This document shows positions 10,669 to 34,400 of a stretch of DNA of 64,000 nucleotides, piece after piece. The DNA lies in NCBI GenBank assembly GCA_944388045.1, contig CALXHG010000003.1, positions 8,912 through 72,911 on the forward strand, written 5' to 3'. The notes under the pieces are model-generated. The model was not told the DNA's origin. It made no database searches and saw nothing but the letters and a program-made list of their open reading frames with translations. The position numbers were made by a program, and so were the translations under genes. This DNA comes from an uncultured Clostridia bacterium (lineage in GTDB: Bacteria; Bacillota; Clostridia; TANB77; CAG-508). How positions within the stretch are numbered: position 1 is the first letter of the stretch; every line of letters begins with the position of its first letter.

Positions 10669-10796
10669 TAATATTTTAATTTACTAAATTCTAGGATAGA
10701 AATCCTAGAATTTAAACAAATAATTGACCTTTAATGAATAAAAAACTATATACTTATTATAAGTTTATAGGTTGTGAAAGGAAAGAAAGTTAGAAA

Positions 10797-11147
10797 ATGA
10801 AAGAAACAGAAATGCTAAAAAAAAATTATGAATTTAGAAATGTTCTAACAAAAGGTCATTTTTTCATTGGAAGACAATTAAAAGTTGTTATTTTTAAAAA
10901 TAGAAAAAAATGTAAATTACTTGGAATAGCTATAAGCTCAAAAAATGGAAAAGCATACCAAAGAAATAGAGCAAAAAGATTGATAAGAGAAAGCTATAAG
11001 ATTCTTGAAGAAAAAATTGAAAATGGTTATACTATAGTAATTTTAATCAAAAATGATATTAATTTAAAAGATTTAAAATTTATTGATATATTAAATGAAT
11101 TAAAAGATACTTTAAAAAAATCTCAAATTTTATATATTAAAGATTAA
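10797..11147 (+). CDS. rnpA: RNase P protein component
   Basis: 116 aa basic protein directly after rpmH. Canonical position. Confidence 0.85.
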   Translation: MKETEMLKKNYEFRNVLTKGHFFIGRQLKVVIFKNRKKCKLLGIAISSKNGKAYQRNRAKRLIRESYKILEEKIENGYTIVILIKNDINLKDLKFIDILNELKDTLKKSQILYIKD

Positions 11148-11168
11148 TTGAAAAGGTAAAATTTAAAT

Positions 11169-11387
11169 ATGAAAAAAATATGTATTTATTTAATTGAATG
11201 GTATCAAAAACATATATCAGTATTTTTAGATGAAAAAAACATTAAATGCAAATATTACCCAACATGTTCAGAGTATACTAGACAAGCAATAATTAAATAT
11301 GGTTGTATAAAAGGAATATTTCTTGGAGGAAAAAGAATACTTAAATGTAATCCTTTTTCTAAGGGAGGATATGATCCTTTAAAATAG
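11169..11387 (+). CDS. yidD: membrane protein insertion efficiency factor YidD
   Basis: 72 aa. YYPTCSEY...GG.DP motif typical of the YidD family. Confidence 0.8.
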   Translation: MKKICIYLIEWYQKHISVFLDEKNIKCKYYPTCSEYTRQAIIKYGCIKGIFLGGKRILKCNPFSKGGYDPLK

Positions 11388-11401
11388 AAAGGGGTATAGG
11401 G

Positions 11402-12349
11402 ATGATAGCACCATTTGCAAATTTATTTGGATATATATTAAATTTTATTTATAATGTAGTTAATAATTATGGTATAGCAATTATAATTTTTTCAATATTA
11501 ATAAAATTAGCTATGCTTCCAATATCTATAAAACAGCAAAAAACAATGAAAAAAACTACAAAAATACAAAATAAAATGAAGGAAATCCAATTTAAATATA
11601 AGAATGATCCAGAAAATTTAAATAGAGCAATGATGGAATTATACAAGTCAGAAAATATGAGTCCTTTTAGTGGTTGTTTTAGTGCAATAGTACAAATTAT
11701 TTTATTATTTGCTGTATTTTACCTTGTTAGATCACCATTAACTTATATGAAAAAAGTTGATAGTGAGGTAATTAGTAAATATACAAAAATAATGCAACAA
11801 AATGAACTAACCACAAGTAGTGCATATCCTGAAATTGAAATTATTAGAGATATAGATAAAATAAAAGAATTAAGAACAAAAGAGGAACAAGCACAAGATG
11901 GAACAGAGGAAAATAGTGAGCAAGTTGAAGAAAATTCTCAAAATGAAGACGAAAAAATAAATTTTACAGAAATAAATGATGAAGAATTAGATTCACTTAA
12001 TATAAATATGGAATTTTTAGGATTAAATCTTGCACAAGTTCCTACGAATACAACTGACTGGAAAGCTTATATAATACCATTATTATATGTACTTGTATCA
12101 ATAATCTCATTAAGACTAACAAATCCAACAAAAAATAAAAAGAAAAATGATGATAAAGATAATAATAAAGAAGAATTTGATCCAATGGTACAAATGAATA
12201 AAAATATGAATATAATATTTCCAATTATGTATTTATCTGTAGCTTTAATTGCACCATTAGGTTTAGCTTTATATTGGTTAACAAACAGTCTTTTAATGAT
12301 AGTTGAAAAGTTAACTTTAAATAAGGTATTAAAAGATGAGGAGGAATAA
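11402..12349 (+). CDS. yidC: membrane protein insertase YidC/Oxa1 family (SpoIIIJ-like)
   Basis: 315 aa multi-TM protein following rnpA-yidD. Confidence 0.85.
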   Translation: MIAPFANLFGYILNFIYNVVNNYGIAIIIFSILIKLAMLPISIKQQKTMKKTTKIQNKMKEIQFKYKNDPENLNRAMMELYKSENMSPFSGCFSAIVQIILLFAVFYLVRSPLTYMKKVDSEVISKYTKIMQQNELTTSSAYPEIEIIRDIDKIKELRTKEEQAQDGTEENSEQVEENSQNEDEKINFTEINDEELDSLNINMEFLGLNLAQVPTNTTDWKAYIIPLLYVLVSIISLRLTNPTKNKKKNDDKDNNKEEFDPMVQMNKNMNIIFPIMYLSVALIAPLGLALYWLTNSLLMIVEKLTLNKVLKDEEE

Positions 12350-12351
12350 GA

Positions 12352-13029
12352 ATGGCAAAAAGTATTATTTCAGAAGGTAAAACAAAACAAGAAGCAATTG
12401 AGAAAGGATTAAAAGCAATAAATTTACCAAAAGAATTGTGTGAAATAAAAGTTTTAAATGATAATAAAAAAAGTTTTTTTGATATCTTAGCTCCAACAAT
12501 AGTTAAAGTTGAAATTAAAGAAATTGAAGCTAAAAAGCCAGAAAAAATTGAAATTATTACAACAGAAGAAGAATTAATTAATGCAAAAAATAATATTGAA
12601 AATTTTTTAAAAGAATTTTTTGAAAAAATGAAAATTGATGCAGAATCAAATGTTGAAATAAAAGATAAGTGTATATATGTATCAATTAATGGAAAGAATA
12701 TTGGAAATTTAATAGGGTATAGAGGAGATGCATTATATGCCTTAGAAAATATATTAAAATCAATAGCAAATAAAAATTCTGAAAATAGAGTTATTGTAAG
12801 ATTAGATATAGAAAATTATAAACAAAAAAGAGAAGAAACATTAAAAGAATTTGCATTAAAAAAAGCTGATTTAGTTGTAAAAACTGGAAAAACTTTAACA
12901 TTAGAACCAATGAAAGCATATGAAAGAAAAATAATTCATACTGTTTTACAAGAAAATAGTAATGTAGAAACTAGAAGTATAGGTGAGGAACCAAGAAGAA
13001 GAATAGTTATTACAAAAAAGGAAAGTTAA
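12352..13029 (+). CDS. jag: Jag/KhpB RNA-binding protein (KH and R3H domains)
   Basis: 225 aa. C-terminal R3H-like KIIHTVLQEN...RSIGEEP. Synteny after yidC. Confidence 0.8.
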   Translation: MAKSIISEGKTKQEAIEKGLKAINLPKELCEIKVLNDNKKSFFDILAPTIVKVEIKEIEAKKPEKIEIITTEEELINAKNNIENFLKEFFEKMKIDAESNVEIKDKCIYVSINGKNIGNLIGYRGDALYALENILKSIANKNSENRVIVRLDIENYKQKREETLKEFALKKADLVVKTGKTLTLEPMKAYERKIIHTVLQENSNVETRSIGEEPRRRIVITKKES

Positions 13030-13651
13030 TAAATTTATAAATCGGAAGTCAAAGTTCGGATTTTAATCAAAAGATTAAAAACAAATTTTGACTTCTATTT
13101 TTAATAAAATAGTTAAATTATTTATAAATTATATATAATAATTAATTATTATAAAATATATTTTTAAAATATAAAAAAATATATATAAAATATAAAATTA
13201 CATTATTAATTCTTTTAAATCAAATTAGATAGAAAAATAAAATTTAAATAAAATTAAAATAACAACATGAAAAAAATAATATAAATATAAAATAAATAAA
13301 AAATAATTTAATAATAATATTATTATTTTTATTAATATTATAATAAAAAAATAATTAAAAATATTAAATAATTTGTTGAAAAAATAATATAAAATAATTT
13401 GTTAAATAAAATAAAAAATAATTTATTAAAAAAATAATATAAAATAATTTATAAAAAAATAATATAAATAATTAATTAAAATTTATTATATTAAAAATTA
13501 TAATAAAATAAAAAATTTATTTAAATAATTATATAAATAATAAATATTTTATTATATAATTTTATAAATAATTAAATAGAATTTAAACAAAAATATAATG
13601 AAATTTAAAATATATTTGAAAAATATGGAAAATAAAAAAGGAGGAACAAAA

Positions 13652-15022
13652 ATGAATACAATTGTAGGTGTATCTACAGCACCTGGGATAGGTGGTATCG
13701 GGATTATACGAATGAGTGGAGAAGATACTTTTAAAATTTTAGATAAAATTTTTGTACCAAAGCATAAACAAGAAATAAATGATATAAAAGGATACACAAT
13801 TAAATATGGAAATATAATAGAAAATAATGAAATAATTGATGAAGTATTAGTTTCTTATTTTAAATCACCTAAAAGTTATACAATGGAAAATATGTGTGAA
13901 ATAAATTCCCATGGAGGAAATTTAATTATAAAAAAGATTTTAGAAATTTGTTTAAAAAATGGAGCAGAAATGGCTGAACCAGGTGAATTTACAAAAAGAG
14001 CATTTCTTAATGGAAGAATTGATTTAGCCCAAGCAGAATCTGTTATTGATATAATAAATGCAAAATCTGATAGAGAAGCTAAAAGTGGGGTAAAACAATT
14101 AGAAGGATTTTTATCAAAAGAAATTAAAGAAATCAAACAAAATATTTTAGATGTACTTGTAAATATTGAAGTAACTATTGATTATCCAGAATATGATACA
14201 CCAGAAGTACAAAAAAAAGAAATAAAAGACATGCTTGAAAATATTGGAAAAAAATTAACTAAGCTAGAAAAATCATTTGATAATGGTAAAATCGTAAAAG
14301 ATGGTATTAAAACTGCTATTATAGGTAAACCAAATGCGGGAAAATCTTCATTATTAAATGCAATATTAAAAGAAGATAGAGCAATTGTAACAGACATTGC
14401 TGGAACAACTAGAGATACTATAGAAGAATATGTTACAATAAATGGAATAACATTAAAATTAATAGATACTGCAGGAATAAGACAATCAAATGACTCTGTG
14501 GAAAAAATAGGAATTGAAAAATCTATAGAACAAGCTAATGAAGCGGATTTGGTTATTGCTATATTTGATTGTTCTAAAGAATTAGATAAGGAAGATTTAG
14601 AAATTTTAAAATTAATAGAAAATAAAAAATCCATAATTTTGTTAAATAAAAGTGATTTGAAAAATGTTTTAAATAAAGAAAATGATTTATTAAAAAATAA
14701 ATCTAAAAATATTTTAAAAATTTCTGCGCTAAATAAAACAGGATTAGAAGAATTATATAATAAAATAACAGAAATGTTTCAATTAAATGAAATTAATTTA
14801 GATAATGAAGTATTAATTACTAACGTAAGGCATAAAAATATTATATCAAAAGCAATAGAAAGTGTTAAATTGGCAAATAAGGCGATTTTAGATAATATGC
14901 CTATAGATATCATATCTATTTATATAAAACAGATTTTAGACGATTTAGGAGAGATTACAGGAGAAGTTGTTACAGAAGATATTATTAATGAAATTTTTTC
15001 AAAATTCTGTTTAGGAAAATAA
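13652..15022 (+). CDS. mnmE: tRNA modification GTPase MnmE
   Basis: G-domain GKPNAGKSSLLNA, DTAGIR, NKSD, and the C-terminal CxGK tail (FCLGK). Start chosen at MNTIVGV with RBS AAAGGAGG. The track ORF starts upstream at 13598. Confidence 0.9.
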   Translation: MNTIVGVSTAPGIGGIGIIRMSGEDTFKILDKIFVPKHKQEINDIKGYTIKYGNIIENNEIIDEVLVSYFKSPKSYTMENMCEINSHGGNLIIKKILEICLKNGAEMAEPGEFTKRAFLNGRIDLAQAESVIDIINAKSDREAKSGVKQLEGFLSKEIKEIKQNILDVLVNIEVTIDYPEYDTPEVQKKEIKDMLENIGKKLTKLEKSFDNGKIVKDGIKTAIIGKPNAGKSSLLNAILKEDRAIVTDIAGTTRDTIEEYVTINGITLKLIDTAGIRQSNDSVEKIGIEKSIEQANEADLVIAIFDCSKELDKEDLEILKLIENKKSIILLNKSDLKNVLNKENDLLKNKSKNILKISALNKTGLEELYNKITEMFQLNEINLDNEVLITNVRHKNIISKAIESVKLANKAILDNMPIDIISIYIKQILDDLGEITGEVVTEDIINEIFSKFCLGK

Positions 15023-15041
15023 AGAAAAGAGGTAAAAATAA

Positions 15042-16913
15042 ATGAGTTATTATGCAGGAGAATATGATGTAGCAGTAATTGGAGCAGGACATGCAGGATG
15101 TGAAGCCGGTCTTGCAGCAGCAAGATTAGGAATGAAAACAGTTGTTTTTTCTATAAGCTTGGAGGCGGTTGCAAATATGCCTTGTAATCCACATATAGGT
15201 GGAAGTTCAAAAGGGCATTTAGTAAGAGAAATAGATGCTTTAGGTGGTGAAATGGCAAAAAATATTGACAAAACTATGATACAAATAAAGATGTTAAATA
15301 CTTCAAAAGGACCAGCAGTATATTCTTTAAGAGCCCAAGCTGATAGAAAAAGATATCAAATGGAAATGAAACATACATTAGAAAAACAAGAAAATTTAGA
15401 TTTAAAACAAGCAGAAATAGTTGACATAAAAATAGAAAATAATAAAATAAAATCAATTGAAACAGATGTTGGAGCAATATATAATGTAAAAACATTAATT
15501 GTTGCAAGTGGAACATATTTAAAAGGAAAAATTTTTATTGGAGAATTTTCTAGAGAAAGTGGACCAGATGGAGTATTTCCTGCAAATAAACTTTCTGAAG
15601 CTTTAAAAAGAAATGGAATTAATCTAATAAGATTTAAAACAGGAACACCAGCTAGAATTAATAAAAAAAGTATAGATTTTTCAAAAATGGAAATTCAAAA
15701 AGGGGAAGATAATATAATACCATTTTCTTTTGAAGATAAAATGCAAAAATTTGACCAAGTTGATTGTTATTTGACTTATACAACACAAGAAACACATAGA
15801 ATTATTAGAGAAAATCTACATAGATCACCATTGTTTGCAGGAGTTATTGAAGGAACAGGACCAAGATACTGCCCATCAATAGAAGATAAAGTTGTAAGAT
15901 TTGCTGATAAAGAAAGACATCAAGTTTTTGTTGAACCAATTGGATTAGATACAGATGAAATGTATATACAAGGTATGAGCTCATCTTTGCCAGAAGATGT
16001 GCAAATTGCAATGTATAGAACTCTACCGGGATTAGAACATTGTGAATTTACAAGACCAGCATATGCAATAGAATATGATTGCATAGATCCATCAGAATTA
16101 AAATTATCATTAGAATATAAAACAATTGAAGGCTTATTTTTTGCCGGACAAACTAATGGTACATCAGGATATGAAGAAGCAGCATGTCAAGGACTAATTG
16201 CAGGAATAAATGCTTCACAAAAAATAAAAGGTAAAGACCCCTTAATTTTAGATAGAACAGAAGCATATATTGGTGTATTAATAGATGATATTGTTACTAA
16301 AGGAACAAATGAACCATATAGAATGATGACATCAAGAGCTGAATATAGATTATTATTAAGACAAGATAATGCAGATTTAAGACTAACAGAAAAAGGGCAT
16401 GAAATTGGATTAATTTCTGATGAAAGATATGAAAAATTTCTTGAAAAAAAGAAAAAAATAGAAGAAGAAAAAGAAAGATTACAAAAAACAATTGTAAAAC
16501 CAACACAAGAAGTAAATAAATTTTTAAAAGAAGCTGGAACATCAGAATTAACAACAGGATGTAAATTAGCAGATTTATTAAAAAGAACAGAAATAACATA
16601 TGCTTCACTTGAAACAATAGATAAAGATAGACCACATTTGCCAGAACAAGTTAGAGAAGAAGTAGAAATTCAAGTAAAATATGATGGATATATAAAATTA
16701 CAAGAACAACAAGTAGAAAAATTTAAAAAAATGGAGAAAAAATTAATACCAGATAATATAAATTATGATGATGTTAAAGGAATTTGTTTAGAAGCAAGAC
16801 AAAAATTAAAAAAACATATGCCACATTCCATAGGACAGGCTTCAAGAATATCAGGAGTTTCACCAGCAGATATTTCTGTATTATTAGTATATTTACAAAC
16901 CAAAAAACATTAA
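15042..16913 (+). CDS. mnmG: tRNA uridine 5-carboxymethylaminomethyl modification enzyme MnmG (GidA)
   Basis: 623 aa. FAD-binding N-terminus [15 protein letters not shown]. Confidence 0.95.
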
Positions 16914-16985
16914 AGCTTAGATACTAATTTTGAAATCAATTAATAATATAAATAAATTATTATAAAAAGGAGATAAAAAATAAAT

Positions 16986-17708
16986 ATGGAAGAAAAAGAA
17001 TTTTTTAATCAAATACAAGAAAAAGGAGAGGTTTTAAATATTTTTTTTTCCGTGGAGCAAAAAACAAAATTTTACAAATATATGCAATTGTTACTTGAAT
17101 GGAACAATAAGATAAACCTTACAGCAATAACGATTCCGGAAGAAATAATTTTAAAACATTTTATAGATTCTTTAACAATTTACAAAAAATTAACCCGTGG
17201 AGCAAAAATAATTGATGTGGGAACAGGAGCAGGTTTTCCTGGAATTCCATTAGCAATTATTGATGAAAATTTAAAAATAACACTTAATGATTCATTAAAT
17301 AAACGATTAATATTTTTAACAGAAGTAAAAAACCAATTAAAAATAGATAATATAGAAATAATTCATTCTAGAGCAGAAGAAATTGGACAGAAAAAAAATT
17401 ATAGGGAAAAATTTGATTATGCAACATCAAGAGCTGTTGCAAATTTATCTACATTATCAGAATATCTTTTACCATTAGTAAAAGTAAATGGTAAATGTAT
17501 TTGTATGAAAGCATCAAATATTGAGGAAGAATTAAATCAAGCTCAAAATGCAATAAAGGTATTGGGAGGAGAAGTAACAGATATTGAAAAATTCAAATTA
17601 CCACAAAGTGATATAGATAGAACAATAATAACAATAACAAAAACAAAAAATACTCCAAATAAATATCCAAGAAAAGCAGGAACACCAAGTAAAGATCCTA
17701 TAAAGTAA
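16986..17708 (+). CDS. rsmG: 16S rRNA (guanine527-N7)-methyltransferase RsmG
   Basis: 240 aa. SAM-binding DVGTGAGFPGIPLAI. Confidence 0.9.
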   Translation: MEEKEFFNQIQEKGEVLNIFFSVEQKTKFYKYMQLLLEWNNKINLTAITIPEEIILKHFIDSLTIYKKLTRGAKIIDVGTGAGFPGIPLAIIDENLKITLNDSLNKRLIFLTEVKNQLKIDNIEIIHSRAEEIGQKKNYREKFDYATSRAVANLSTLSEYLLPLVKVNGKCICMKASNIEEELNQAQNAIKVLGGEVTDIEKFKLPQSDIDRTIITITKTKNTPNKYPRKAGTPSKDPIK

Positions 17709-17760
17709 AAAATGCTCCACATATATTGTGGGGTATTTTCTTATATAAAACACTAAAAAA

Positions 17761-21072: not shown

Positions 21073-21516
21073 ATGAAAAAGTATTTATGTAAGATATTAA
21101 TAGTTTTTACTTTTTTTGTATGTATAATAAATAGTTTTCCTAATCAAGTAAAGGCAATTGATAAATATATTATAAATTCTAGTATTAAAATTTCAGTTGC
21201 AATAGCTGCAACTGGAGGAGGAAGAGGCTCTACAAGTTCAGGCAATTCTGGAAAAATTGATACAGGTAGTTATAAACCAGAAATAACCAATAATACTAAA
21301 GCTAATTCTATGATTGGTAAGATTTTTGGAGCTTTACAGATAATTGGAATGATTGCAATAGTACTATCAATTGCGTTAGTTGGATTTAATACAATGCTAG
21401 GTTCAGCAGAAGAAAAAGCACAGGGAAAAGGAAAAGCGATAGGCATATTATTTGGAGCCATTATGATAACAGCTGTTTCAACAATTGCTAAATTAATAAT
21501 TTCTGCTGTTGAATAA
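21073..21516 (+). CDS. VirB2/TrbC-like pilin-like protein, paralog 1 (signal peptide plus two hydrophobic helices)
   Basis: RBS AGGAGGG. Signal-like N-terminus ending VKA. Mature part IGMIAIVLSIALVGFNTMLGSAEEKAQGKGKAIGILFGAIMITAVSTIAKLI. Sits in a T4SS-like cluster. Confidence 0.5.
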   Translation: MKKYLCKILIVFTFFVCIINSFPNQVKAIDKYIINSSIKISVAIAATGGGRGSTSSGNSGKIDTGSYKPEITNNTKANSMIGKIFGALQIIGMIAIVLSIALVGFNTMLGSAEEKAQGKGKAIGILFGAIMITAVSTIAKLIISAVE

Positions 21517-21530
21517 AAGGGGTGAATGGT

Positions 21531-21953
21531 ATGAAAGAGATACAAGTTTTAAAAGTTTCGAAAAAAAACATAATTGTTTTTTTCATATTTTTAATCTTTA
21601 TGTATATAATGCAACCAGCGATTGTATTAGGGGCTAATGGTGGAGAAGATACATTGGATGATATTATACAAAGTGGAAATGATTTTTTAAATGCAGCAGA
21701 TGATTCTATGAACACTATAGATGAAGGAGATTTACAAGGTTTATCTAAATTTATATCAGGAGTTTTACTTTCCATAGCAATTGGTGTTACAGTTATATCA
21801 GGAGTTGTGTTAGGAATAAAATTTGTAACACAAAGCATTGAAGATAAAGCAAAAATAAAGGAAGCAATGGTACCATGGATAATTGGAATAATGGTTTCTT
21901 TTGGAGCATTTACTATTTGGGAGATTACAATCAAATTCTTCCAAAACATGTAA
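21531..21953 (+). CDS. VirB2/TrbC-like pilin-like protein, paralog 2
   Basis: Signal peptide then LLSIAIGVTVISGVVLGIKFVTQSIEDKAKIKEAMVPWIIGIMVSFGAF. Same helix-(S/A)xEDKAK-helix motif as paralogs 1 and 3. Confidence 0.45.
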   Translation: MKEIQVLKVSKKNIIVFFIFLIFMYIMQPAIVLGANGGEDTLDDIIQSGNDFLNAADDSMNTIDEGDLQGLSKFISGVLLSIAIGVTVISGVVLGIKFVTQSIEDKAKIKEAMVPWIIGIMVSFGAFTIWEITIKFFQNM

Positions 21954-22010
21954 TTAAATTGTTTATAAAATTTTATAATATAATATAAAAAATAAAAAGG
22001 AGGAGATTAT

Positions 22011-22373
22011 ATGACAAAATACTTAAAAGTATTTGCAATAATAGCAATGGCTTTAATTATGATTTTTACAGTATCTAATATAGCTTTTGCAGATTCTGCA
22101 CAAGATATTATTACTGGAATAGAGGGAGATACACAAGGAATTGATGCATCTGGAATGAAAAGTATAGCTAGTAGAGTTTTAGGATTATTACAAATTTTAT
22201 CAGCTATTTTAGCAGTTATTTTAATTGCATATTTAGGTTTTAAAATGCTATTAGGATCAGCTAATGAAAAAGCAGATGTTCAAAAACAATTTATCCCATT
22301 AATTATTGGTGTAGTAATTGTATTTGCTGCAACAAGTATTGCTAAATTATTACTTGGAATTATGGGGGTATAA
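22011..22373 (+). CDS. VirB2/TrbC-like pilin-like protein, paralog 3
   Basis: RBS AAAGGAGGAG. Signal peptide ending AFA. LQILSAILAVILIAYLGFKMLLGSANEKADVQKQFIPLIIGVVIVFAATSIAKLLLG. Confidence 0.5.
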   Translation: MTKYLKVFAIIAMALIMIFTVSNIAFADSAQDIITGIEGDTQGIDASGMKSIASRVLGLLQILSAILAVILIAYLGFKMLLGSANEKADVQKQFIPLIIGVVIVFAATSIAKLLLGIMGV

Positions 22374-22490: not shown

Positions 22491-22856
22491 ATGGCAAGAT
22501 ATGCATATACAATACCTAGAAATACAAAAGGAGAAGGTAGAATATTATTAATATTTACAAAGAAATCTTTTTTATGGACAATTGCTAGTTCTGCAGTAGG
22601 TCTTTTTGTTGGATATTTACCTATTGGAATGATTCTACAACATCCATTTATAGGAATAGCAGTTACACTTGTATTTGGATTAATTGGATTTTTAATAGCA
22701 ACATTAAAAGTACCTAATTCAACCAATTTTGAGATATTTAGAAAAACTGGAGGAGAAAATATAGATGAAATATTAATGAGAGCTATTAAATTTAAAAAAC
22801 AAGGAAAGAAAATATATTTATATCATTACAACAAAGGAGGAGATGATAATGAGTAA
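22491..22856 (+). CDS. VirB3/PrgI/Orf17-like small two-TM protein
   Basis: 121 aa. Central TM hairpin FLWTIASSAVGLFVGYLPIGMILQHPFIGIAVTLVFGLIGFLIATL. Lies immediately upstream of the VirB4-region genes, as in Gram-positive T4SS. Confidence 0.45.
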   Translation: MARYAYTIPRNTKGEGRILLIFTKKSFLWTIASSAVGLFVGYLPIGMILQHPFIGIAVTLVFGLIGFLIATLKVPNSTNFEIFRKTGGENIDEILMRAIKFKKQGKKIYLYHYNKGGDDNE

Positions 22857-24063
22857 TCCAGAACAACTTATACCAATTTTAGTTGGAATTGCTGTTGTTT
22901 TAGTAATTGTTATTTTTATATTATTAGGGGTATGGATTTTTGTAGTTTCTAAAGAAAAGAGAAAATCCAAAGAAAATAAAGAAAATGAGAATGTAGATAC
23001 TAATGGAATATATAATATAAATTCTATAATGAATTTCATGGAATTTGAAAAAGTTGAAGATAATATGATAATACAAAAAAATGGTAAATATTTGATGGTA
23101 ATTGAGTGTCAAGGAATAAATTTCGATTTAATGTCTGAAATGGAAATGACTTCTGTTGAACAAGGATTTATAGAATTTTTAAATACTTTAAAATATGAAA
23201 TACAAATTTATGTTCAAACAAGAACAGTTAATCTAGAACAAAGCTTGCAAGAATACAAACTAAAATTTAGAGATATTGAAGATAAATATAATGTATTGCA
23301 AAACAAATATTTACAAATGAAAGAAGCAGAACCAGGAATTTATTCTGAAAAAGACATATATAAAGCATATACAGAGTTTGTAAGACAAAGAAACAAATAT
23401 GAGTATACAAAAGACATTATAGCAGATACAGAAAAAAATAGTTTAAATAGTAATGTATTACATAAAAAATATTATATAATTATTGCTTATTATGAAGATG
23501 AAGTAAATACTCAGAATTATTCAAAAGATGAAATTCAAAATATGATATTTAATGAATTATATACAAGAGCAAGATCAATAATGAGAACATTAACAAGATG
23601 TGAAGTTAATACTAAAATATTAGATTCTAGAGCATTAGTTGAATTATTATATAATGCATATAATAGAGAAGATGCTGACGTGTTTAGTGCAAAAATGGCT
23701 ATGAATGCTGGATTTGACGCATTATATTCTACAGCACCAGATGTACTAGACAAGAGAATGAAATTAATAAATAAACAAATAGAAGATGAAGGATTAAAAG
23801 TAGCAAATGAAGCGATTAATGAAGCAAGAAGTGATAAAGAAATGATGATAAGGATTAGAGAAGAAAATGCTAAAAACTTAATATTTGATTTTGCTGAACA
23901 ATTAATTTCTGAAAATGAAGAATTTTTAGGAAAAGATATAGCAGAAGATGCAAAAGTAAAAGTTAGAAGAAAACATAAAGCTACGGAAGAAGGAGGTAAT
24001 GAGGATGAAGCAGAAGAAAAGAAAACAACAAGAAGAAAAAGAACAACTACAACAACAAAATAA
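22843..24063 (+). CDS. membrane-anchored protein with a region resembling the non-ATPase N-terminal domain of VirB4-family proteins, plus a coiled-coil, K/E-rich C-terminus
   Basis: N-terminal TM PILVGIAVVLVIVIFILLGVWIFVV. KYLMVIECQGINFDLMSEMEMTSVEQGFIEFLNTLKYEIQIYVQTRTV matches the pattern of VirB4 N-terminal regions as I recall it. No Walker A. Confidence 0.3.
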   Translation: MIMSNPEQLIPILVGIAVVLVIVIFILLGVWIFVVSKEKRKSKENKENENVDTNGIYNINSIMNFMEFEKVEDNMIIQKNGKYLMVIECQGINFDLMSEMEMTSVEQGFIEFLNTLKYEIQIYVQTRTVNLEQSLQEYKLKFRDIEDKYNVLQNKYLQMKEAEPGIYSEKDIYKAYTEFVRQRNKYEYTKDIIADTEKNSLNSNVLHKKYYIIIAYYEDEVNTQNYSKDEIQNMIFNELYTRARSIMRTLTRCEVNTKILDSRALVELLYNAYNREDADVFSAKMAMNAGFDALYSTAPDVLDKRMKLINKQIEDEGLKVANEAINEARSDKEMMIRIREENAKNLIFDFAEQLISENEEFLGKDIAEDAKVKVRRKHKATEEGGNEDEAEEKKTTRRKRTTTTTK

Positions 24064-25975: not shown

Positions 25976-26121
25976 TAAATATAATATTTAATTTTAGTAG
26001 GAAGGAGGGGAATGAATGAAGAAAATTTTAAAAAAAGAAATACTTAAAAAAATTATAATTACATTTATAATTGCAATTGTAATTTCTAATTTAATAATGC
26101 CAAATTTAGCACTAGCAAAAT

Positions 26122-28488
26122 TTGTTTGGTTTGAAATTACAGAAAATGGTCGGAATTATTATTCTTTCAGATGTAGCTGAAGGGGATGAGGATATTTATG
26201 ATGGAGGAATAGATGCTTATAGTGATGCTGAAGGTGGAATACTTTTAAATGCAGTTTTTGAATTGGCTTTACTAATAGGTGATGCTGTTAATGCTATTTT
26301 TCAGAAGGTTATGCTTGCAGATGAGAGCAATAATAATTTTATAGTTAATATAGTATCTACGGTAATAGATTCTTTTACTATTATGTCTGATGAAAGTGAA
26401 GATGCTGAATTTGATAATGGTAATATTAATAATACAGCATTAAAAGTTAGAATATTACAAAAATTTAAAGAACTTGAATTTCCACATATTCACTATAGCT
26501 GTGAAGAAATTTTTTCTGGGAAAATTGGAATATTGAATATAAATTTTATTTCTGGTGAGGGACAATCAGAAGGATTGGCAAGTGTACGTACCGTTATATC
26601 ATCATGGTATAGAACATTAAGATTGATGGCTATAGTTGGATTTTTATCTATTTTAATTTATACTGGAATTAGAATTATGATTAGTTCAACAGCAGAGGAT
26701 AAAGCAAAATATAAAGAATGGATTATTAATTGGTTGATTGGTATAGCAATATTATTTTTTATGCATTATATTATGAGTTTTATTATAACTATAGTTGAAC
26801 AGTTTAATAAATTCTTGTCACAATCTATGCAATACATACATATTTCTTCTTACTATGCAGAAAAGAGTTTTGCAATAAATGATAAATCGGGTGCATTTAA
26901 TACCAATTTAATAGGTTTAGTAAGATTTTGCGCACAATCATCAGTACCCCAATTTAAAGTAGGATATTTAATTTTATATATTATGCTTACGACATATACT
27001 GCAAAGTTTACATTTATATATTTAAAAAGGGTTATTAATATGGCGTTTTTAACTATGATTGCACCAATTGTTGCTTTTACATATCCATTAGATAAACTAT
27101 CTGATGGAAAGGCAGAAGGTTTTAATATGTGGTTAAAAGAATATGTGTTTAATGCTTTATTACAACCAATGCACTTTTTACTATATTATATTTTAGTAGG
27201 TTCATCAGTTATAATAGCAGCAGAAAATCCTATATACGCAATTGCTGTATTAGCTTTTATGTCTGAAGGAGAAAGATTGTTAAGAAAAATATTTGGATTT
27301 GATAAAGCATCAGGTGGTACTGTTAAAGGAATGCAGGATGCATTTGCTGCAGCCACAATTGCAACAAGTCTTAGAGGACTTATGTCTAAAGGTGGGCAAA
27401 AGAATTCAACACAAAGAAAAATGACTGCACCAGGAGGTTTTAAGGATGATTTAAAAAATGGTATTGCTATGAATAATCCTAATATAAATTCTGCGGCTCA
27501 ACTAACAAGTGGAACAGAAGAAAAGCCAACATCTGATTCTGGAGGAAATCAAAGAAATTCTGACTCAGATTCTAGTGGTAATGGAGCAGAAAGTGTTGAT
27601 AATAATAACACAAGAACACTTAATCCAAATGAAAATAATTCAAGAGATTCTAGCTCACAAACTAATGGACAAACAGAAGATAATCAAAAAACACAAACAG
27701 TAAATTCAAATGCAAACAAAGAAGGACAAAAACCATTATCTATTAGACAAAAAGCATTAAGAACAGCAAAGAATGTTGGTAAAAAAGCTGTAAGACCTAT
27801 ATGGGATTTTGATAGAACTGGAAAATATAATGGCAAGAGGTTAATTAGGAATGTTGCTAAAGGTGTGGTTGGAACAGGATTAGGAATTACGGCAGCAGCT
27901 GTACAGGCTGGTATAAGTTTAGCTGATGGAAAATATCATCCAGGAGAAGGATTAGCTTCATTTGCTGCAGGATTTGGAGTAGGTGGCAGAGGTTTTGACG
28001 GAGTAGCAAATACTTTTTCAGAGGGATATCAAGAAGGACTTACTGAAGAAGAAAAAATGCAAGCATATCAAGAAGATTTTAGAAATAGAGAAGATGTTAT
28101 CGAATTTTGTAAGCAAACTTATGGAGATGATTGGAAACAATACCGTGATAGAATGACAGATAATTATGTTTATAGAGGTTTTACAGATTTAGGTGAAATG
28201 AAAGAAATGATTAAATATTCTAATGCAATTACAGGTGATGTAAGTGGATTAACAGACAAACAAAGAAAAGAAAAAATTTTGCAGAGTGATATTGCTGCAA
28301 TGTCTATAAAAAATGTTCAAAGAAGAAAAATAAATGAAGGATCAATGTCAACAGTATATAATAGAGATAAAGAAGATGAATATATTAAAGCTAGAACACA
28401 AGATTCTTCTAATCCAACAGAATTAGCAAATAGAATTAGAACTGAAAATGCAGCAATTAGATACTATAACAGTATTGTTAAAGACTAA
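26122..28488 (+). CDS. VirB6/ConG-like polytopic membrane protein, paralog 1, with conserved C-terminal extension; N-terminal signal segment lies in another frame
   Basis: 788 aa from a TTG start. Conserved blocks shared with the next two ORFs: PHIHYS.EEIFSG, ISGEGQ, SSWYRTLRL, AEDKAKYKEWIINWLIGIA, NLIGLVRFC, FTFIYLKRVINMAFLT, IAPIVAFTYPLDKLSDGKAEGFNMWLKEY, NALLQPMH, RPIWDFDRTGKYN, AAVQAGISLADGKY, EEKMQAYQEDFRNREDVIEFCK. A separate-frame ORF at 26006-26170 encodes a signal peptide MKKILKKEILKKIIITFIIAIVISNLIMPNLALA. Confidence 0.5.
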   Translation: MFGLKLQKMVGIIILSDVAEGDEDIYDGGIDAYSDAEGGILLNAVFELALLIGDAVNAIFQKVMLADESNNNFIVNIVSTVIDSFTIMSDESEDAEFDNGNINNTALKVRILQKFKELEFPHIHYSCEEIFSGKIGILNINFISGEGQSEGLASVRTVISSWYRTLRLMAIVGFLSILIYTGIRIMISSTAEDKAKYKEWIINWLIGIAILFFMHYIMSFIITIVEQFNKFLSQSMQYIHISSYYAEKSFAINDKSGAFNTNLIGLVRFCAQSSVPQFKVGYLILYIMLTTYTAKFTFIYLKRVINMAFLTMIAPIVAFTYPLDKLSDGKAEGFNMWLKEYVFNALLQPMHFLLYYILVGSSVIIAAENPIYAIAVLAFMSEGERLLRKIFGFDKASGGTVKGMQDAFAAATIATSLRGLMSKGGQKNSTQRKMTAPGGFKDDLKNGIAMNNPNINSAAQLTSGTEEKPTSDSGGNQRNSDSDSSGNGAESVDNNNTRTLNPNENNSRDSSSQTNGQTEDNQKTQTVNSNANKEGQKPLSIRQKALRTAKNVGKKAVRPIWDFDRTGKYNGKRLIRNVAKGVVGTGLGITAAAVQAGISLADGKYHPGEGLASFAAGFGVGGRGFDGVANTFSEGYQEGLTEEEKMQAYQEDFRNREDVIEFCKQTYGDDWKQYRDRMTDNYVYRGFTDLGEMKEMIKYSNAITGDVSGLTDKQRKEKILQSDIAAMSIKNVQRRKINEGSMSTVYNRDKEDEYIKARTQDSSNPTELANRIRTENAAIRYYNSIVKD

Positions 28489-28566: not shown

Positions 28567-31458
28567 ATGAAAAAAACTATTTTTAATAAAATTTTAATAA
28601 TTAATCTTATTTTAATCATTTTACTTAATTGGTGTTTTAATTATATTGTATTTGCAGATAGTACAGAAGAAACATTAGAAAATATTGAAATTCAGGAAAA
28701 CAACGTTGGACAACCTATATATATAAAATTAAAAAAAGAAGCAGTTGAACAACTTAGATTACAATTAGAGGAAAAATATAATTATCAAGGTAGTGTTGAA
28801 GAATTAGCCGAGATTTGTGAAATAGATTTAACAGATGGAACCGCGGGAACAGAACTAAGTTCTGAAGGAAAACAAATTAAAATTGATGATGATACTACAA
28901 TTATATTGGGTTTTAATATAAACATAAAAACAGGAACAGATTCTTCTCTTGCTTCATCAATATCAAATCCAGAAGGAGCATATACAAAAATTGTTATAGG
29001 TGATATTAATGTTATAAAAAATACAGGAGAAGACAATAATGATGAAAAAAATGAAGAAGATTCAAATTCAAATTCTGTAAATTTTAGTAATGAACTTGTT
29101 ATTAATGGAATGATTGTAAAGGGAGAGACAAATTGGGATATAGGTGGAGTTATATTAAAACCGATTTTCTTTTTAGTAAATTGTGTATTTGATACTATAT
29201 TAGCTAGAGTTCAACAAGTAATGTATTCTGATGTATCAGATTTAAATTTATTGTCAGCATATGTAAAAGAAAATTATATTGATAAACTTAGGGTTGTAGA
29301 TAGTAGGAATATAGATCCAATGTTCCAATTATCACAAAATCAAATAAATTATGTGTTGTTTACAGATCAAAAAATAGGAAGTAGTGAATACCCACATATT
29401 CATTATAGTCCAGAAGAAATTTTTTCTGGACAAATTAGTTTATTAAATATAGATTTTATATCAGGAGAAGGACAAGCAGAAGGTTTAGGAGTTATAAGAA
29501 AAACTATCGCAACATGGTATAATGTATTAAGATTAATAGCAACTGTAGGTTTTCTATTAGTATTAATATATATAGGAATTAAAATTATAATTACATCTAG
29601 TTCAAGTGACAAAGCAAAATATAAAGAATGGTTAATAGATTGGTTAATTGGAATTGCTATGTTATATTCAATGCATTTTATAATGGCATTTATTATTTCA
29701 GCAATAAATCAATTAAATAATCATTTAATAACAGTTATGCCGATTATAAGAGTTGCTGCTGGAAATGGTTTTGAATCATTTAGTACAAATCTTATTGGTT
29801 TAGTAAGATTTTGCACACAATATGATACTATTATGTTAAAAATAGGTTTTGAGATTATGTATATTATGCTTGTTGTTTATACATTAAAATTTACTTTTGT
29901 ATATATTAGAAGGGTAATATATATGGCATTTTTAACAATAATTGCACCAATTGTAGCATTTACTTATCCTATAGATAAATTTCTTGATGGAAAAGCAGAA
30001 GGTTTTTCTATGTGGTTAAAAGAATTCTTTTTTAATGCTTTATTACAACCAATGCATTATTTATTATATTATGTAATGGTAAGTTCATCAATAGAAATTG
30101 CTATAAAAAATCCATTGTATGCAGTTGCTGTATTGGCATTTATGACGGAAGCAGAAAGATTAATAAGAAAAATATTTGGTTTTGAAAAAGCTCGAGAAGG
30201 AACAGTTGGCGGATTAGGAACAGCTTTATCTGGACTTGCACTTGTGCAAGGAGCTAAAAAATTATCTGGAATGAGAAAAAACAATCAACAATCACCTACA
30301 AGAAACTATCCAGGAGCTGTAAATCAGGATTATAAAAACAAAGATTATCTTCCTCAAGGAGGAGAAACTGATTTTAATAATGATGATGATTCAAGTAATA
30401 ATAGCTTGGGAGCAATAGATGCGGAAAAAGATAAAAACATATCTACAAATCAACAAAATTCTTCTACTAATCAAAATAATACTAATACTTCAAATAATCA
30501 AGAAAATTCAAATAATGATTTTGTACCAATTGGAAGACCTAGATTGCTAGGAAAAATTATCCCAAATAAAAAAGAAGAAACAATGTTAGATAAAATTCAA
30601 TCAAAACTAGAACCAATACATAAATTAGCAGAAAAAGCAAAAAATACTCAATTGGGACAAAATGCAACAGCACTTGCAAATTCTAAAATTGGAAGGGGAA
30701 CTAGAGCAATTGGTAAAAGGGCATTAAGACCAATTTGGGATGTTGATAGAAGTGGAAAGTATAATTTTAAAAGATTAGTTAGAAAGGTAGCAGTTGGATC
30801 AATTGGAGTAGGTTTTGGACTTACTGCTGCAGCTGTGCAAGCTGGAATTAGTTTAGCTGATGGGAAATATAATCCAAGGGAAGCTATAGGTTCATTTGCA
30901 GCGGGATATGCATTGGCAGGAAGGCAAGTTGGAAATATTGTAGATACTTTTCAAGAAGGGTATCAAGAAGTACTTATAAAAGAAGAAAAAATGAAAAGTT
31001 ATCAAGAAGAATTTAAAAATAGGGAAGATGTTATCCAATTTTGTAAAGAAAATTATGGTGATAAATGGAAAGAATATAGAGAAAGAATTATTGATAATTA
31101 TGTAACAAGAGGCTTTATAGATTTAAATGAAATAAAGCAAGGAATTAAGTATTCAGATAAAATTTCTAAAGAAGTAAATAATAGTAGAACATATTTAAAT
31201 GAAAATCAGAAAAATAAGACTTTAAAAGTTGAAAAAGACAAACAAGATGTTATAGCAATGTATATTATGTCTCAAAAGAAGAAAAGGCAAAAAATTCATG
31301 CATCTTCTATCACATATAATAAGGAAAAAGAAGAAAGATATTTAAAATCTGTTACTCAAGGAATGAAACCAGAAGATGCAAAAAAAACAATAAAACAAGA
31401 AAGAACAATAAGTGCTTCAATTAGATTTTTTGACCAAAAAATTTCAGAAATAGAATAG
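28567..31458 (+). CDS. VirB6/ConG-like polytopic membrane protein, paralog 2
   Basis: 963 aa with RBS AAGAGGTGATGTA. Signal peptide, roughly 280-aa extracellular N-domain, then the same conserved TM core and C-terminal domain as paralog 1, plus a disordered N/S/Q-rich linker. Confidence 0.5.
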   Translation: MKKTIFNKILIINLILIILLNWCFNYIVFADSTEETLENIEIQENNVGQPIYIKLKKEAVEQLRLQLEEKYNYQGSVEELAEICEIDLTDGTAGTELSSEGKQIKIDDDTTIILGFNINIKTGTDSSLASSISNPEGAYTKIVIGDINVIKNTGEDNNDEKNEEDSNSNSVNFSNELVINGMIVKGETNWDIGGVILKPIFFLVNCVFDTILARVQQVMYSDVSDLNLLSAYVKENYIDKLRVVDSRNIDPMFQLSQNQINYVLFTDQKIGSSEYPHIHYSPEEIFSGQISLLNIDFISGEGQAEGLGVIRKTIATWYNVLRLIATVGFLLVLIYIGIKIIITSSSSDKAKYKEWLIDWLIGIAMLYSMHFIMAFIISAINQLNNHLITVMPIIRVAAGNGFESFSTNLIGLVRFCTQYDTIMLKIGFEIMYIMLVVYTLKFTFVYIRRVIYMAFLTIIAPIVAFTYPIDKFLDGKAEGFSMWLKEFFFNALLQPMHYLLYYVMVSSSIEIAIKNPLYAVAVLAFMTEAERLIRKIFGFEKAREGTVGGLGTALSGLALVQGAKKLSGMRKNNQQSPTRNYPGAVNQDYKNKDYLPQGGETDFNNDDDSSNNSLGAIDAEKDKNISTNQQNSSTNQNNTNTSNNQENSNNDFVPIGRPRLLGKIIPNKKEETMLDKIQSKLEPIHKLAEKAKNTQLGQNATALANSKIGRGTRAIGKRALRPIWDVDRSGKYNFKRLVRKVAVGSIGVGFGLTAAAVQAGISLADGKYNPREAIGSFAAGYALAGRQVGNIVDTFQEGYQEVLIKEEKMKSYQEEFKNREDVIQFCKENYGDKWKEYRERIIDNYVTRGFIDLNEIKQGIKYSDKISKEVNNSRTYLNENQKNKTLKVEKDKQDVIAMYIMSQKKKRQKIHASSITYNKEKEERYLKSVTQGMKPEDAKKTIKQERTISASIRFFDQKISEIE

Positions 31459-31473: not shown

Positions 31474-34400
31474 GTGTTTAAAAATGTATTTATTAAAATT
31501 TTAGTTTGTGTTCTTATAACTTGTATTATATTTCCATATTTTTATGTTAATATAATATATGCAGTTCCAGTAGATGAATTTGGAAATCAGATTAATACTG
31601 AAACAGAACAAAATCCTATGCAAGAGGCAGATGAAAATATAAATCCCAATGATGATTATACTACTACTGATGATGGAAATTTATCTGCTGATGTAGATGA
31701 TGATACAGGCGTAATTTTACAAGTTTTAATTGAAATTTTAATGTCTGTTTGTGATGCATTAATTTCAATATTTTCTAATTGTATGCTAGGAACTACAAAT
31801 GAAAAAGTAATGGTAAAATGGGATAAACTAGATACTTCAAATGTTATAGAAGGAAATACAACTAAAACATTTACTCAAGAAGAAATTGATAAATTTAAAA
31901 ATAATAAAGGAAATGTACCAGAATTAAAATATCCTTCTTTTAAATATACACCAGAAGAAATTTTTAAAGGCGAAATAGATTTATTTGGAATAGATTTTAT
32001 TGGTGGAAACGTAGTAAAAAATGGTGTAGAAGAAAAAAATCAATCAGATGGTTGGAATGCACTAAGGTTAACAATATCATCATGGTATAAAACATTACGA
32101 ATAGTTGCACTTGTTTTACTGTTACCAATATTAATATACATAGGAATTAATATTATTATTAATTCTAGTGCAGGAAAAAAAGCAGAATATAAAAAAAGTT
32201 TAGTAAATTGGTTTATTGCATTATTTTTAATATTTACAATGCACTATATTATGGCTTTTGTTATATCTGTAATTCAAAATGTAACTACATTAATAAGTAA
32301 AAGTATAGGGAATGTAAGAGTTATTTTTGGAGATAAAGTTTTTGTAACAAACTTTATGGGACTTGCAAGATTCCAATCACAACAAAATTCTCTTATTAAT
32401 AAATTAGGTTTTTTAATGATTTATGTTTGCTTTATATCTCTTACCGTTAAATTTACATTTATATATTTCAAAAGAATGATAAATATGGCATTTTTAACAT
32501 TAATCTCACCTTTAGTTGCTATGATGTATCCATTAGACAAACTGGAAGGTGGCAAATCAAAAGCTTTTGGATTATGGCTTAAAGAATATATATATAATGC
32601 ATTATTACAACTTATGCACCTTCTTTTATATAATCTTTTAATAGGTTCTGCTGTACAATTGGCAACAGAAAATCCTGTTTATACTATTGTTGCATTATTC
32701 TTTTTGACTGAGGCAGAAAAATTAATGAAAAAACTTTTTGGATTTGGAAGATCAAGAGGAGGAACAGTAGGGGGATTAGCAGGTACTGTAGGTGCATTAG
32801 CTCTTGGATCAGCTGTCGGAGGTGGAATAAGAGATATAATACATTCATATAGAGGAACAAACTCAAATAATTTTTCAGATTCAAAAAATGATTTAAAGAA
32901 AGATAATAGTAACAACTTTGAAGAAGAAGAAGAAAAAGAAGATGAAAGATTTGAAAAGAAATATGGTCAAAGAGGAATAAAATCAGACACTCTTGATGTT
33001 GATAAGAATATATTTAACACTAGAAATAAGTTAACAGATAAAGACTTACAAAGTGATAAAGACGAAGATAAAGAAGAAAATAAAAAATTTGAAAATGCAT
33101 TTAATTTTTTGAAATATAATGGATTTAAAGGTGGGAAAAATGGTGAAGAAAGTGTTATGGCTAAAAGAAAATTTAAGCAAATGAGATCTATTATTAGGAA
33201 AAGTGAAGAACCATTTGATAAAGCTAATATGGCATTACAATATAATGATCAATATTCAAAATATAGTTCAAACCAGTTACTTGAAAAAATGAAAGAAAGT
33301 ATAAATAATGGCGATTTAGAAGAAGCAAGAAAAACTTATGATGCTTTATATAGAAGATTATTAGAAAACAAATTCTTTATGAAACATAAAGGACCAGAAG
33401 CATTTGCAAGAAGAAAATATTATAATTTATCTGATGATGAATTAAAACAAAGATATGAAGAAGCTAAAGCACAGAATAATCAAGAAGATATGTTAGAGTG
33501 TGAAGCTGAAATGGCATTAAGGAGTAAAGATTATTCATTATATGACAAAAAATTAGATGAAATAGAAAAATATAGATTAACACATTCAAATGAAAGTCAA
33601 CCACATTTAAATGGAACAGCAGGTAGTTCTGCAGAAAATAATGAAGTACAAAAAAATAATCAACAATCTAATAACAATGAATTAACAAATCAAAATATTA
33701 AAGAGACTGAAGCAAATAATTCAGAAAGTCAATCAAAACAAATTGATGATAAAGGATTAAAAGAAAATAGAACAAATGTTGGATATAATAAAGAATCATT
33801 AGGTGATAAACTTGATAGAATGAGAAGAGGAACAATTAGTGGATTAGGTGCTGTTGCAAGTAGTGCTGTACGACCAATATGGGATACAGATAGAAATGCT
33901 GGAGAAAATCTTGGCAGATTAGGCAGAAATTTAGCAAAAGGAACCTTACAAACAATTATTGGAGTTACTACAGTTGCAGTACAAGCTGGAGTTAGTGCTG
34001 CAGATGGAAAATATACATCAAAAGAATTTGGTGCTTCTTTAGCAGGAGGAGTTGCATTAGGAGGAAAACTTTATAATAAAGGTGAAAAAGTTGTTAAAGA
34101 TATGGTTAGAGAAACAAGATATGGAAGAGAAGAAACTAGAAAAATACAAATTGCAAAAGATTGGGCAGAAAGAGATGATGTAAAAAGTGCATATGATGAT
34201 TATTATGGCTCAAAATCAAAAGAAATGCTAAGAAGGGCGAGAGATAGATTTGTACCAAAAGGAATTACAGATATAGATGATCAAAAAAGAATACTTAGAT
34301 ATTCAAATTATTTAAGAAGGCAAAAAGGTCACTTTTCAGAAGAAGAAGCAGATAAACAAGCTGTAGAAGTATTTAAGTTTAAGAGAAAAATGGATAATAC

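Follow-up and report, generated by a model that had tools for sequence, protein, structure and literature searches.

The giant membrane proteins encoded by a type IV secretion system (T4SS) gene cluster of an uncultured Clostridia bacterium carry, as their first membrane hairpin, a domain that is homologous to the small pilin-like proteins encoded upstream in the same cluster. The cluster lies in a stretch of 64,000 nucleotides (nt) of contig CALXHG010000003.1 (GenBank assembly GCA_944388045.1, positions 8,912 to 72,911), which was analysed as a whole and is referred to below as the window, and to which all nucleotide positions refer. It encodes three small proteins, S1, S2 and S3, and three tandem giants, B1, B2 and B3 (Table 1). 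The similarity is restricted to this single hairpin, is conserved throughout the family of giants, and goes together with a conserved gene order, pilin - VirB3 - VirB4 - giant, in the related loci. In current models of how a T4SS starts its pilus, the first pilins sit on a VirB6 pentamer, and the feature that the pilins recognise there is left unspecified. If a recognisable pilin module is the most conserved part of a VirB6-type protein, a testable answer would be that the base mimics a layer of the pilus.

A hairpin shared by the small and the giant proteins

A sequence-only reading of the window had quoted one peptide from each of the six proteins, and had proposed that the giants embed a VirB2-type hairpin whose motif links the two gene families. 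All six peptides were found in the sequence as written and in the places assigned to them, and a hydrophobic helix, an S-x-x-[DE]-K-A-x-x-K turn and a second helix can be aligned in each of S1-S3 and B1-B3. Comparison of the alignments of the small and the large proteins by hhalign returned one match (Prob 93.5%, E 2.2e-7), in which residues 50-116 of S3 are paired with residues 156-223 of B1; the aligned hairpin is C-terminal in the small proteins and is the first membrane hairpin in the giants. Once the hairpin columns were removed, the rest of the large alignment scored 23.6, pairing signal peptide with signal peptide. When the small-protein side was enlarged to 202 sequences from 67 related genomes, comparison with the giants' hairpin gave Prob 97.9% and E 4.5e-13. 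In addition, AlphaFold2 (AF2) models place a predicted helix break at the aligned position in both proteins, at G82-S83 of S3 and S188-S189 of B1.

It could be argued that the two hairpins are not homologous at all, and that their likeness stems from generic transmembrane-hairpin composition or from convergence in an AT-rich genome. The identity is indeed low, with 14-18 identical residues over 60-70, and at a G+C content (GC) of ~25% Ile, Lys, Phe and Asn are plentiful. This explanation is refuted by the controls, and its probability is close to nil. In 300 permutations, the alignment columns were shuffled separately inside the first transmembrane segment (TM1), the loop and the second transmembrane segment (TM2), which preserves both layout and composition; the resulting scores had a mean of 12.4 (standard deviation 2.7, maximum 22.3), against an observed score of 48.5 (z 13.6), and z was 14.8 for the profile of 202 small proteins. 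Full permutation of the columns gave a maximum of 17.8, and the reversed hairpin scored 10.4. The other transmembrane segments of the same proteins did not match the hairpin (scores <= 24), nor did nine other T4SS membrane proteins compared as single sequences, i.e. PrgF, PrgH, TcpD, TcpE, TcpH, TrwL, TrwM, TrwI and TrwJ, or a 40-sequence alignment of the PrgH family compared with the small, hairpin and core profiles (hhalign scores <= 24 in all cases). The nine proteins and the PrgH alignment serve as negative controls and are of little use for judging VirB6 membership, as the true VirB2 protein TrwL was also missed. The similarity found by profile-profile comparison thus exceeds what generic hairpin composition yields.

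Reciprocal scans with profile hidden Markov models (HMMs) over all 431 stop-to-stop open reading frames (ORFs) of at least 40 amino acids (aa) in the window gave the same picture. The small-protein HMM scored 26.8, 26.1 and 24.4 bits on B1, B2 and B3, respectively, and 7.7 bits on the next ORF, while the giant-hairpin HMM scored 23.7, 21.5 and 12.8 bits on S3, S2 and S1, respectively, the next ORF reaching 9.7. All nine pairwise alignments between S and B proteins exceeded 500 of 500 residue shuffles. Furthermore, an external model picks the same hairpin: PF18895 (T4SS_pilin) is the sole Pfam family that matches B1, B2 and B3 at E <= 1, and it does so on the hairpin, over nearly the whole model. 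The whole-protein scores of B1-B3 are 20-24 bits, below the cut-off of 26.6 bits; the excised B1 hairpin scores 28.9 bits and covers positions 4-71 of the 71 in the model. Among 30 excised hairpins, 29 match PF18895 at E <= 0.01, the best at 4.7e-9. We conclude from these sequence comparisons that the hairpins of the small and the giant proteins are truly homologous. The proposal of an embedded VirB2-type hairpin, and of a motif joining both families, is therefore upheld by hhalign with its controls and by the position of the PF18895 match.

HMMER searches of the PDB sequences with the small-protein profile gave chance matches only (a designed transmembrane protein and PsbZ), and no match was obtained with the large-protein profile. 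We also considered, and rejected, a duplication of the hairpin inside the giants, the apparent second stretches in five members being signal peptides that score 3-6 bits.

The small proteins as pilins

S1-S3 have a common layout as seen from sequence and hydropathy, in which a signal peptide is followed by a variable segment and by a C-terminal pair of hydrophobic helices with a short charged turn. In S1, the signal peptide ends in ...NQVKA, the N-terminal part is rich in Gly and Ser, and the hairpin spans residues 79-147 with the loop GSAEEKAQGKGK; the loop of S2 is QSIEDKAKIKE. In S3, the signal peptide ends in ...IAFA, and the hairpin spans residues 50-116 (nt 22158-22358) with the loop GSANEKADVQKQ; its AF2 model has helices at residues 46-81 and 84-118, for which a Foldseek search of the PDB returned generic helical hairpins only (DgkA and the c subunits of V-ATPases).

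S3 exceeds the cut-offs of both relevant Pfam families, TrbC (PF04956; 38.3 bits, cut-off 27.9) and T4SS_pilin (33.2 bits, cut-off 26.6), and some of its 261 homologues are labelled TrbC/VirB2 by their sources. S1 falls marginally under the T4SS_pilin cut-off (E 9.8e-6, 26.0 bits), and S2 is below the threshold in both families (TrbC E 8.1e-5, 23.2 bits; T4SS_pilin E 0.0019). The two are assigned to the pilins because they are similar to S3 (Smith-Waterman z 15.6 for S1 and S3). All three proteins are small, have a signal peptide and two transmembrane helices joined by a short charged loop, and are encoded beside virB3/virB4. On this sequence evidence, S1-S3 are VirB2/TrbC-type pilins, and they add to the recent evidence for VirB2-type pilins in monoderm T4SSs.

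Conservation of the two families

When the giants' hairpin profile was compared with 1.84 billion representative sequences, 3,722 protein clusters were matched at E <= 1e-3, of which 2,712 also reached E <= 1e-10. Only giants are among the 150 best matches; they typically have 800-1100 aa and carry the hairpin between about residues 150 and 430. The small-protein HMM, run on 92 full-length giants, placed its best domain on the hairpin in all 92 (median 19.6 bits; reversed decoys <= 5.3), and PF18895 matches 50 of 54 full-length giants. In the opposite direction, the giant-hairpin HMM gave a median of 26.5 bits, and up to 40.7, on 206 ORFs that had been picked by the small-protein HMM alone. 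The consensus pair reads ILGIKYMlGS-vEEKAeyK...IIGa..iF and YIGIRIiISStA-DKAKYK...lVAl.LLF. The giants have 31 invariant columns, and the 14 that fall in the hairpin include a W, a Y, K-Y-K and D-W.

The best 74 loci, taken from species-representative genomes, are confined to metagenome-assembled genomes (MAGs) of uncultured gut Clostridia from human, rabbit, goat, sheep, mouse and chicken, one of which is a complete chromosome of 1.57 Mb. In 67 of them, one to five small pilin-like ORFs, most commonly three, are located 4-5.5 kb upstream of a giant. A one-to-one pairing of pilins and giants was examined and rejected, since the similarity matrix has no such pattern and the copy numbers of the two do not co-vary (47 loci, r = -0.46).

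The closest plasmid-borne cluster is found on Clostridium botulinum plasmids, where a VirB4 that is 42.6% identical is accompanied by a pilin, a giant and a C39 peptidase. The pilin there has 138 aa and the loop GDNSSEKAKLK; the giant has 853 aa, matches the core HMM at E 2e-12 and has a weakened hairpin motif. A tblastn search of 72,556 plasmids with the B1 core gave no match at E <= 0.01, and this plasmid giant was found by the profile HMM. On one of these plasmids (NZ_KT897276, positions 9225-17713, locus L084) the order is pilin, small membrane protein, 334-aa ORF, VirB4, 853-aa giant and C39 peptidase, with the 334-aa ORF immediately upstream of and overlapping VirB4, at the position of the N-terminal VirB4 part. 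This plasmid is typed as 'non-mobilizable' by PLSDB. Large C. beijerinckii plasmids bear the cluster as well.

These distributions also bear on the age of the similarity. It may have arisen by a lineage-specific event, the pilins having been derived by 5' partial duplication of a giant gene, or a pilin having replaced the N-terminus of a giant. Such an event would account for a similarity that is so much more evident here than in other T4SSs. Neither PrgF/PrgH nor TrwL/TrwI shows detectable similarity to these profiles, and S2 resembles B1 and B2 as closely as it does S3 or S1 (Smith-Waterman scores of 72 against B1, 77 against B2 and 79 against S3). We nevertheless hold it to be very unlikely, as S3 genuinely belongs to the broad TrbC/VirB2 family, the similarity is remote (~21-29% identity) and present in 67 species, and the C. 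botulinum plasmid relative already holds both parts. It is in any case a question of timing, and is compatible with the explanation that we prefer, a pilin module at the base of the pilus.

The giants as probable VirB6-type subunits

B1-B3 are tandem paralogues with at least five transmembrane segments, encoded beside VirB4, as judged from hydropathy, the helices of AF2 models and gene order; the hairpin is followed by at least three further hydrophobic helices. The AF2 model of the B1 core (predicted template modelling score 0.73) has helices at residues 150-187 and 191-235, with a predicted local distance difference test score above 90, followed by a short beta element and more long helices.

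Several VirB6-related families match the giants, in each case below the curated cut-off. TrbL_4 (PF19597) matches 12 of 54 members (best E 4.3e-4) and is collinear with them; residues 179-412 of the member P0254 correspond to model positions 47-249, so that the giants' hairpin falls on the first hairpin of the model. Among the NCBIfam models, pLS20_p028 matches 45 of the 54 members (best E 2e-8; cut-off 150 bits), MMCAP2_0566 matches 36 (best E 4.5e-10; cut-off 90 bits) and Mbov_0396 matches 22 (best E 1e-8; cut-off 70 bits). B3 matches MMCAP2_0566 at E 5.6e-7 over residues 168-390, and B1 has weak matches to all three. pLS20_p028 is gene 49 of pLS20, located downstream of VirD4 and annotated by its authors as a 'putative extended-VirB6'; MMCAP2_0566 and Mbov_0396 are models of CDS16 of mycoplasma integrative and conjugative elements, described in a review as 'likely the VirB6-like component'. 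All scores lie far below these cut-offs, and the giants are relatives, and not members, of these three families. In addition, the giants' hairpin aligns weakly with residues 63-122 of pLS20 gene 49.

The giants also resemble pLS20 gene 49, TcpH of pCW3 and the VirB6 proteins of Rickettsiales in overall architecture, with a core of about five transmembrane segments and a long hydrophilic C-terminal extension in proteins of 700-1100 aa. As in the extended-VirB6 proteins, the extension is partly of low complexity and the gene lies beside VirB4 or VirD4, and the expansion into paralogues has its counterpart in the VirB6 paralogues of Rickettsiales. Pfam and NCBIfam scans found no other VirB6 candidate in the cluster. 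We consider that the giants are probably paralogous extended-VirB6-type polytopic subunits of a monoderm T4SS. Of what the sequence-only reading had said of them, the pilin hairpin stands, and the label 'VirB6-like' is moderately supported, as all the family matches are sub-threshold.

The giants could instead be minor pilins or adhesins of giant size, whose N-terminal pilin module lets them co-polymerise into the pilus with the remainder on display, and would then not form a VirB6 channel. By the Pfam model the hairpin is a T4SS_pilin domain, none of the VirB6 families is matched above threshold, and three sequence-divergent paralogues are reminiscent of variable surface proteins. This is, however, quite unlikely, as the three or more helices after the hairpin are collinear with the TrbL_4, CDS16 and pLS20 gene 49 models, and five transmembrane segments past the signal peptide would put the long C-terminal part in the cytoplasm; the cluster would also be left without a VirB6 candidate.

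The C-terminal parts of the giants share a module that consists of a RPIWD.DR.G.Y... motif, a Gly/Ala-rich hydrophobic stretch and a charged helical region (about residues 560-788 of B1, 730-963 of B2 and 800-1033 of B3), and that has no match in Pfam or NCBIfam. It is preceded by a long low-complexity linker rich in Asn, Ser, Gln and Glu. B1 has no in-frame signal peptide and lacks an N-terminal ectodomain of ~150-170 aa relative to its intact orthologues (929-943 aa), which align only from their residue 156-173 on. In a more distant relative (locus L002) the B1 orthologue is split elsewhere, into 227 and 740 aa. The disruption of B1 could be due to a frameshift, gene decay, phase variation or an assembly error.

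A proposed pilin module at the base of the pilus

In other systems, VirB2 hairpins stack helically with five-fold symmetry to form the conjugative pilus, their inter-helix loop facing the lumen, and VirB6 forms a pentamer, the proposed platform for pilus assembly. The N-terminal part of the giants has the layout of a pilin and is homologous to a whole pilin; since it has both, the pilin module would represent TM1-TM2 of a VirB6-like core and not an add-on. As the module would be TM1-TM2 and is also the most conserved part of the giants, we infer a fixed first layer of five: five giant-borne modules may act as 'layer zero', on which the free S pilins would stack through the usual helix contacts between pilins. 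The shared S-x-x-[DE]-K-A-x-Y/x-K loop might then line a continuous channel or lumen, or touch the same cytoplasmic partner in both families, and the long C-terminal extensions of the giants would remain cytoplasmic. We hold it to be moderately probable that the pilin module is TM1-TM2 of a VirB6-like base and seeds the polymerisation of the pilins, the seeding, the pentamer and the topology being the conjectural parts.

Several observations weigh against this reading. Each match to a VirB6 family lies below its curated threshold, and Pfam TrbL (PF04610), the PrgH-family profile, TrwI and TcpH have no sequence match to the giants at all. Foldseek comparison of the B1 core with the PDB gave a best E-value of 1.7, which is not significant; among the PDB matches, chains of R388 TrwI/VirB6, a solved VirB6 (7O3V, 8RT9), had by far the highest TM-score (TMt 0.39), likewise non-significant. 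The K-rich loop and hydropathy are the only basis for the membrane topology. Across the 47 loci, pilin and giant copy numbers show no co-variation, and the most frequent combination is one giant with three pilins. Finally, at E <= 1 neither PF18895 nor TrbC is matched by PrgH, TcpH, TrwI or pLS20 gene 49, so that an overt pilin signature is particular to the family of the giants.

As the main alternative, the shared hairpin could also be explained by common ancestry without any role in seeding, if it had been retained only because both proteins use the same route of membrane insertion or extraction (Sec/YidC, VirB3/VirB4). This inference, 'a common export pathway', was drawn for CedA and CedA1 by Beltran et al. 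(PMC9905601). The signal peptide and N-terminal layout are collinear in the two families, and the shared motif is in a cytoplasm-facing loop, on the side of VirB3/VirB4. On the other hand, 14 invariant columns in the hairpin exceed what a generic insertion signal would need, and the motif is not shared with other membrane proteins of the cluster. We regard a mere insertion signal as unlikely.

Relation to known systems

Homology between VirB2 and VirB6 has been published in principle. Beltran et al. 2023 (PMC9905601) reported that the N-terminus of CedA is homologous to nearly the whole CedA1 pilin of the archaeal Ced DNA import system, and that VirB6 and VirB2 of Agrobacterium are related likewise with lower significance, one having evolved from the other. 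The giants are a new and much clearer instance. In the two earlier pairs the similarity is at the level of HHpred and is presented in a supplementary figure, whereas here a curated Pfam pilin model matches the giants directly. Unlike those pairs, the present family comprises ~3,700 protein clusters, has a conserved loop motif, occurs in a monoderm host and combines multicopy pilins with giants; with its thousands of members and sharp motif it offers far more sequence signal than either. Our literature search found no other paper that takes up the VirB6/pilin homology, and a query combining VirB6 and T4SS_pilin gave a study of Patescibacteria only.

For pCF10 (PrgF/PrgH), a two-transmembrane protein encoded beside virB6 has been modelled as a pilus that grows on a VirB6 pentamer; PrgF was reported as a VirB2-like pilin, along with candidates in 95% of 174 Gram-positive plasmid classes (bioRxiv 10.64898/2025.12.18.695078). 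That preprint includes models for pCLJ of C. botulinum and describes no pilin module inside VirB6, and PrgF and PrgH have no similarity to the small or giant profiles of this study.

The T4SS of Patescibacteria (PMC12102498; Wang et al. 2023, cited in PMC12857230) is like the present one in being a monoderm, MPF-FATA-type system with arrays of VirB2-like pilins. The arrays there comprise 2-11 tandem, divergent VirB2-like pilins, found through PF04956 and PF18895. That system belongs to small genomes, is often located near dnaA and in most cases has no relaxase, much as here; a pilin-like hairpin in VirB6 was not reported for it. The hosts differ, being in our case AT-rich gut Clostridia that have sporulation genes and a genome size of ~1.6 Mb. 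The cluster in the window resembles these origin-proximal, relaxase-poor systems, and may possibly be a domesticated, non-conjugative T4SS. A bolder version of the preferred reading, which we put forward tentatively and consider somewhat unlikely, is that the VirB6-like pentamer would be the literal first turn of the pilus, its five covalently anchored pilin modules nucleating the assembly of free pilins, that the VirB2 proteins of all T4SSs would descend from, or have given rise to, the N-terminus of VirB6, and that the origin-proximal T4SS with no relaxase in view would have been domesticated for uptake or cell-cell exchange and not for plasmid conjugation. If this were true, the use of such a system by widespread gut Clostridia with genomes of ~1.6 Mb would parallel the essential T4SS of Patescibacteria.

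Gene cluster and chromosomal context

The coordinates of the features are listed in Table 1. The giants start ~4 kb downstream of the small-protein genes, with the genes of the VirB3-position protein, the N-terminal VirB4 part and the VirB4 ATPase in between.

Table 1. Features of the T4SS cluster, in positions of the window
Feature	Position	Strand	Basis
S1, 147-aa pilin-like protein	21073..21516	+	ORF listing
S2, 143-aa pilin-like protein	21522..21953	+	ORF listing
S3, 120-aa TrbC/VirB2-family pilin	22011..22373	+	Pfam TrbC and T4SS_pilin above cut-offs
121-aa membrane protein at the VirB3/TraL/PrgI position	22491..22856	+	weak TraL match, E 0.025
406-aa protein, membrane-anchored N-terminal VirB4 equivalent (TraC-like)	22843..24063	+	match to the Mbov_0397 VirB4 model, positions 54-316
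VirB4 ATPase part, 658 aa	23999..25975	+	NCBIfam CD1110-family VirB4, E 8e-62; Pfam P-loop_TraG, DUF87, AAA_10
Short signal-peptide ORF (MKKILKKEILKKIIITFIIAIVISNLIMPNLALA)	26016..26177	+	strong ribosome-binding site upstream; frame differs from that of the B1 body; three-frame translation
B1, 788-aa giant, probable extended-VirB6 core	26122..28488	+	sole Pfam match T4SS_pilin, residues 155-221
B1 pilin-like hairpin, residues 150-230, loop SSTAEDKAKYKE	26569..26811	+	hhalign against small proteins; PF18895 score of excised hairpin
B2, 963-aa giant, signal peptide intact	28567..31458	+	sole Pfam match T4SS_pilin, residues 310-375, E 4.4e-5
B2 pilin-like hairpin, residues 305-385, loop SSSSDKAKYKE	29479..29721	+	
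B3, 1033-aa giant, signal peptide intact	31474..34575	+	Pfam T4SS_pilin, residues 199-257, E 5.5e-4
B3 pilin-like hairpin, residues 192-272, loop SSAGKKAEYKK	32047..32289	+	
851-aa secreted protein, C-terminal Peptidase_C39_2 domain	35580..38135	+	Pfam, E 3.5e-10

The 121-aa protein at the VirB3 position is kept beside the pilins in 68 of the 74 related loci. The N-terminal VirB4 part, whose orthologues bear the TraC-like domain PF26593, is found in 70 of them, and the ATPase part covers positions 279-891 of the Mbov_0397 VirB4 model. VirB4 is thus encoded by two overlapping ORFs, and the split recurs in related MAGs (407 + 658 and 386 + 648 aa). Further downstream, the 851-aa C39 protein occupies the slot usually taken by the cell-wall hydrolase of monoderm T4SSs, as does a C39 peptidase on the C. 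botulinum plasmid; in one relative (locus L008) a protein of 1234 aa that combines M23, lysozyme and M15 domains is encoded instead. Two proteins at the distal end of the cluster, of 391 aa (38163-39338) and 428 aa (40346-41632), are paralogous to each other (30% identity, E 1e-18), each with an N-terminal transmembrane anchor, and may be candidates for a VirB8-like scaffold; the 391-aa type is kept in 52 of the 74 loci. Scans of the profile libraries gave no family match for the 332-, 391-, 182- and 428-aa proteins of the cluster.

The window covers the origin region of the chromosome. The minus strand carries gyrB, recF, dnaN and dnaA, and the plus strand yidC, jag, mnmE, mnmG, rsmG, parA and parB, followed by two tRNA-Ser genes and then by the T4SS cluster at ~21.0-41.6 kb; beyond the cluster, a Germane-domain (GerM-type) gene is followed by one of the TP_methylase family and by more housekeeping genes. 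None of the window ORFs that were scanned matched a Pfam family of relaxases, coupling proteins or integrases. The cluster also adjoins parAB in relatives, ParB being encoded within 10 kb upstream in 15 of the 53 loci with full flanks. These data point to a conserved chromosomal T4SS by the replication origin in abundant uncultured gut Clostridia.

GC is ~25% across the window, and the sign of the GC skew flips near dnaA. The T4SS cluster lies ~10 kb from the dnaA/GC-skew switch, on the leading strand, and has the same GC as its flanks. The first 4 kb of the window have a GC of 16%, compared with ~25% elsewhere.

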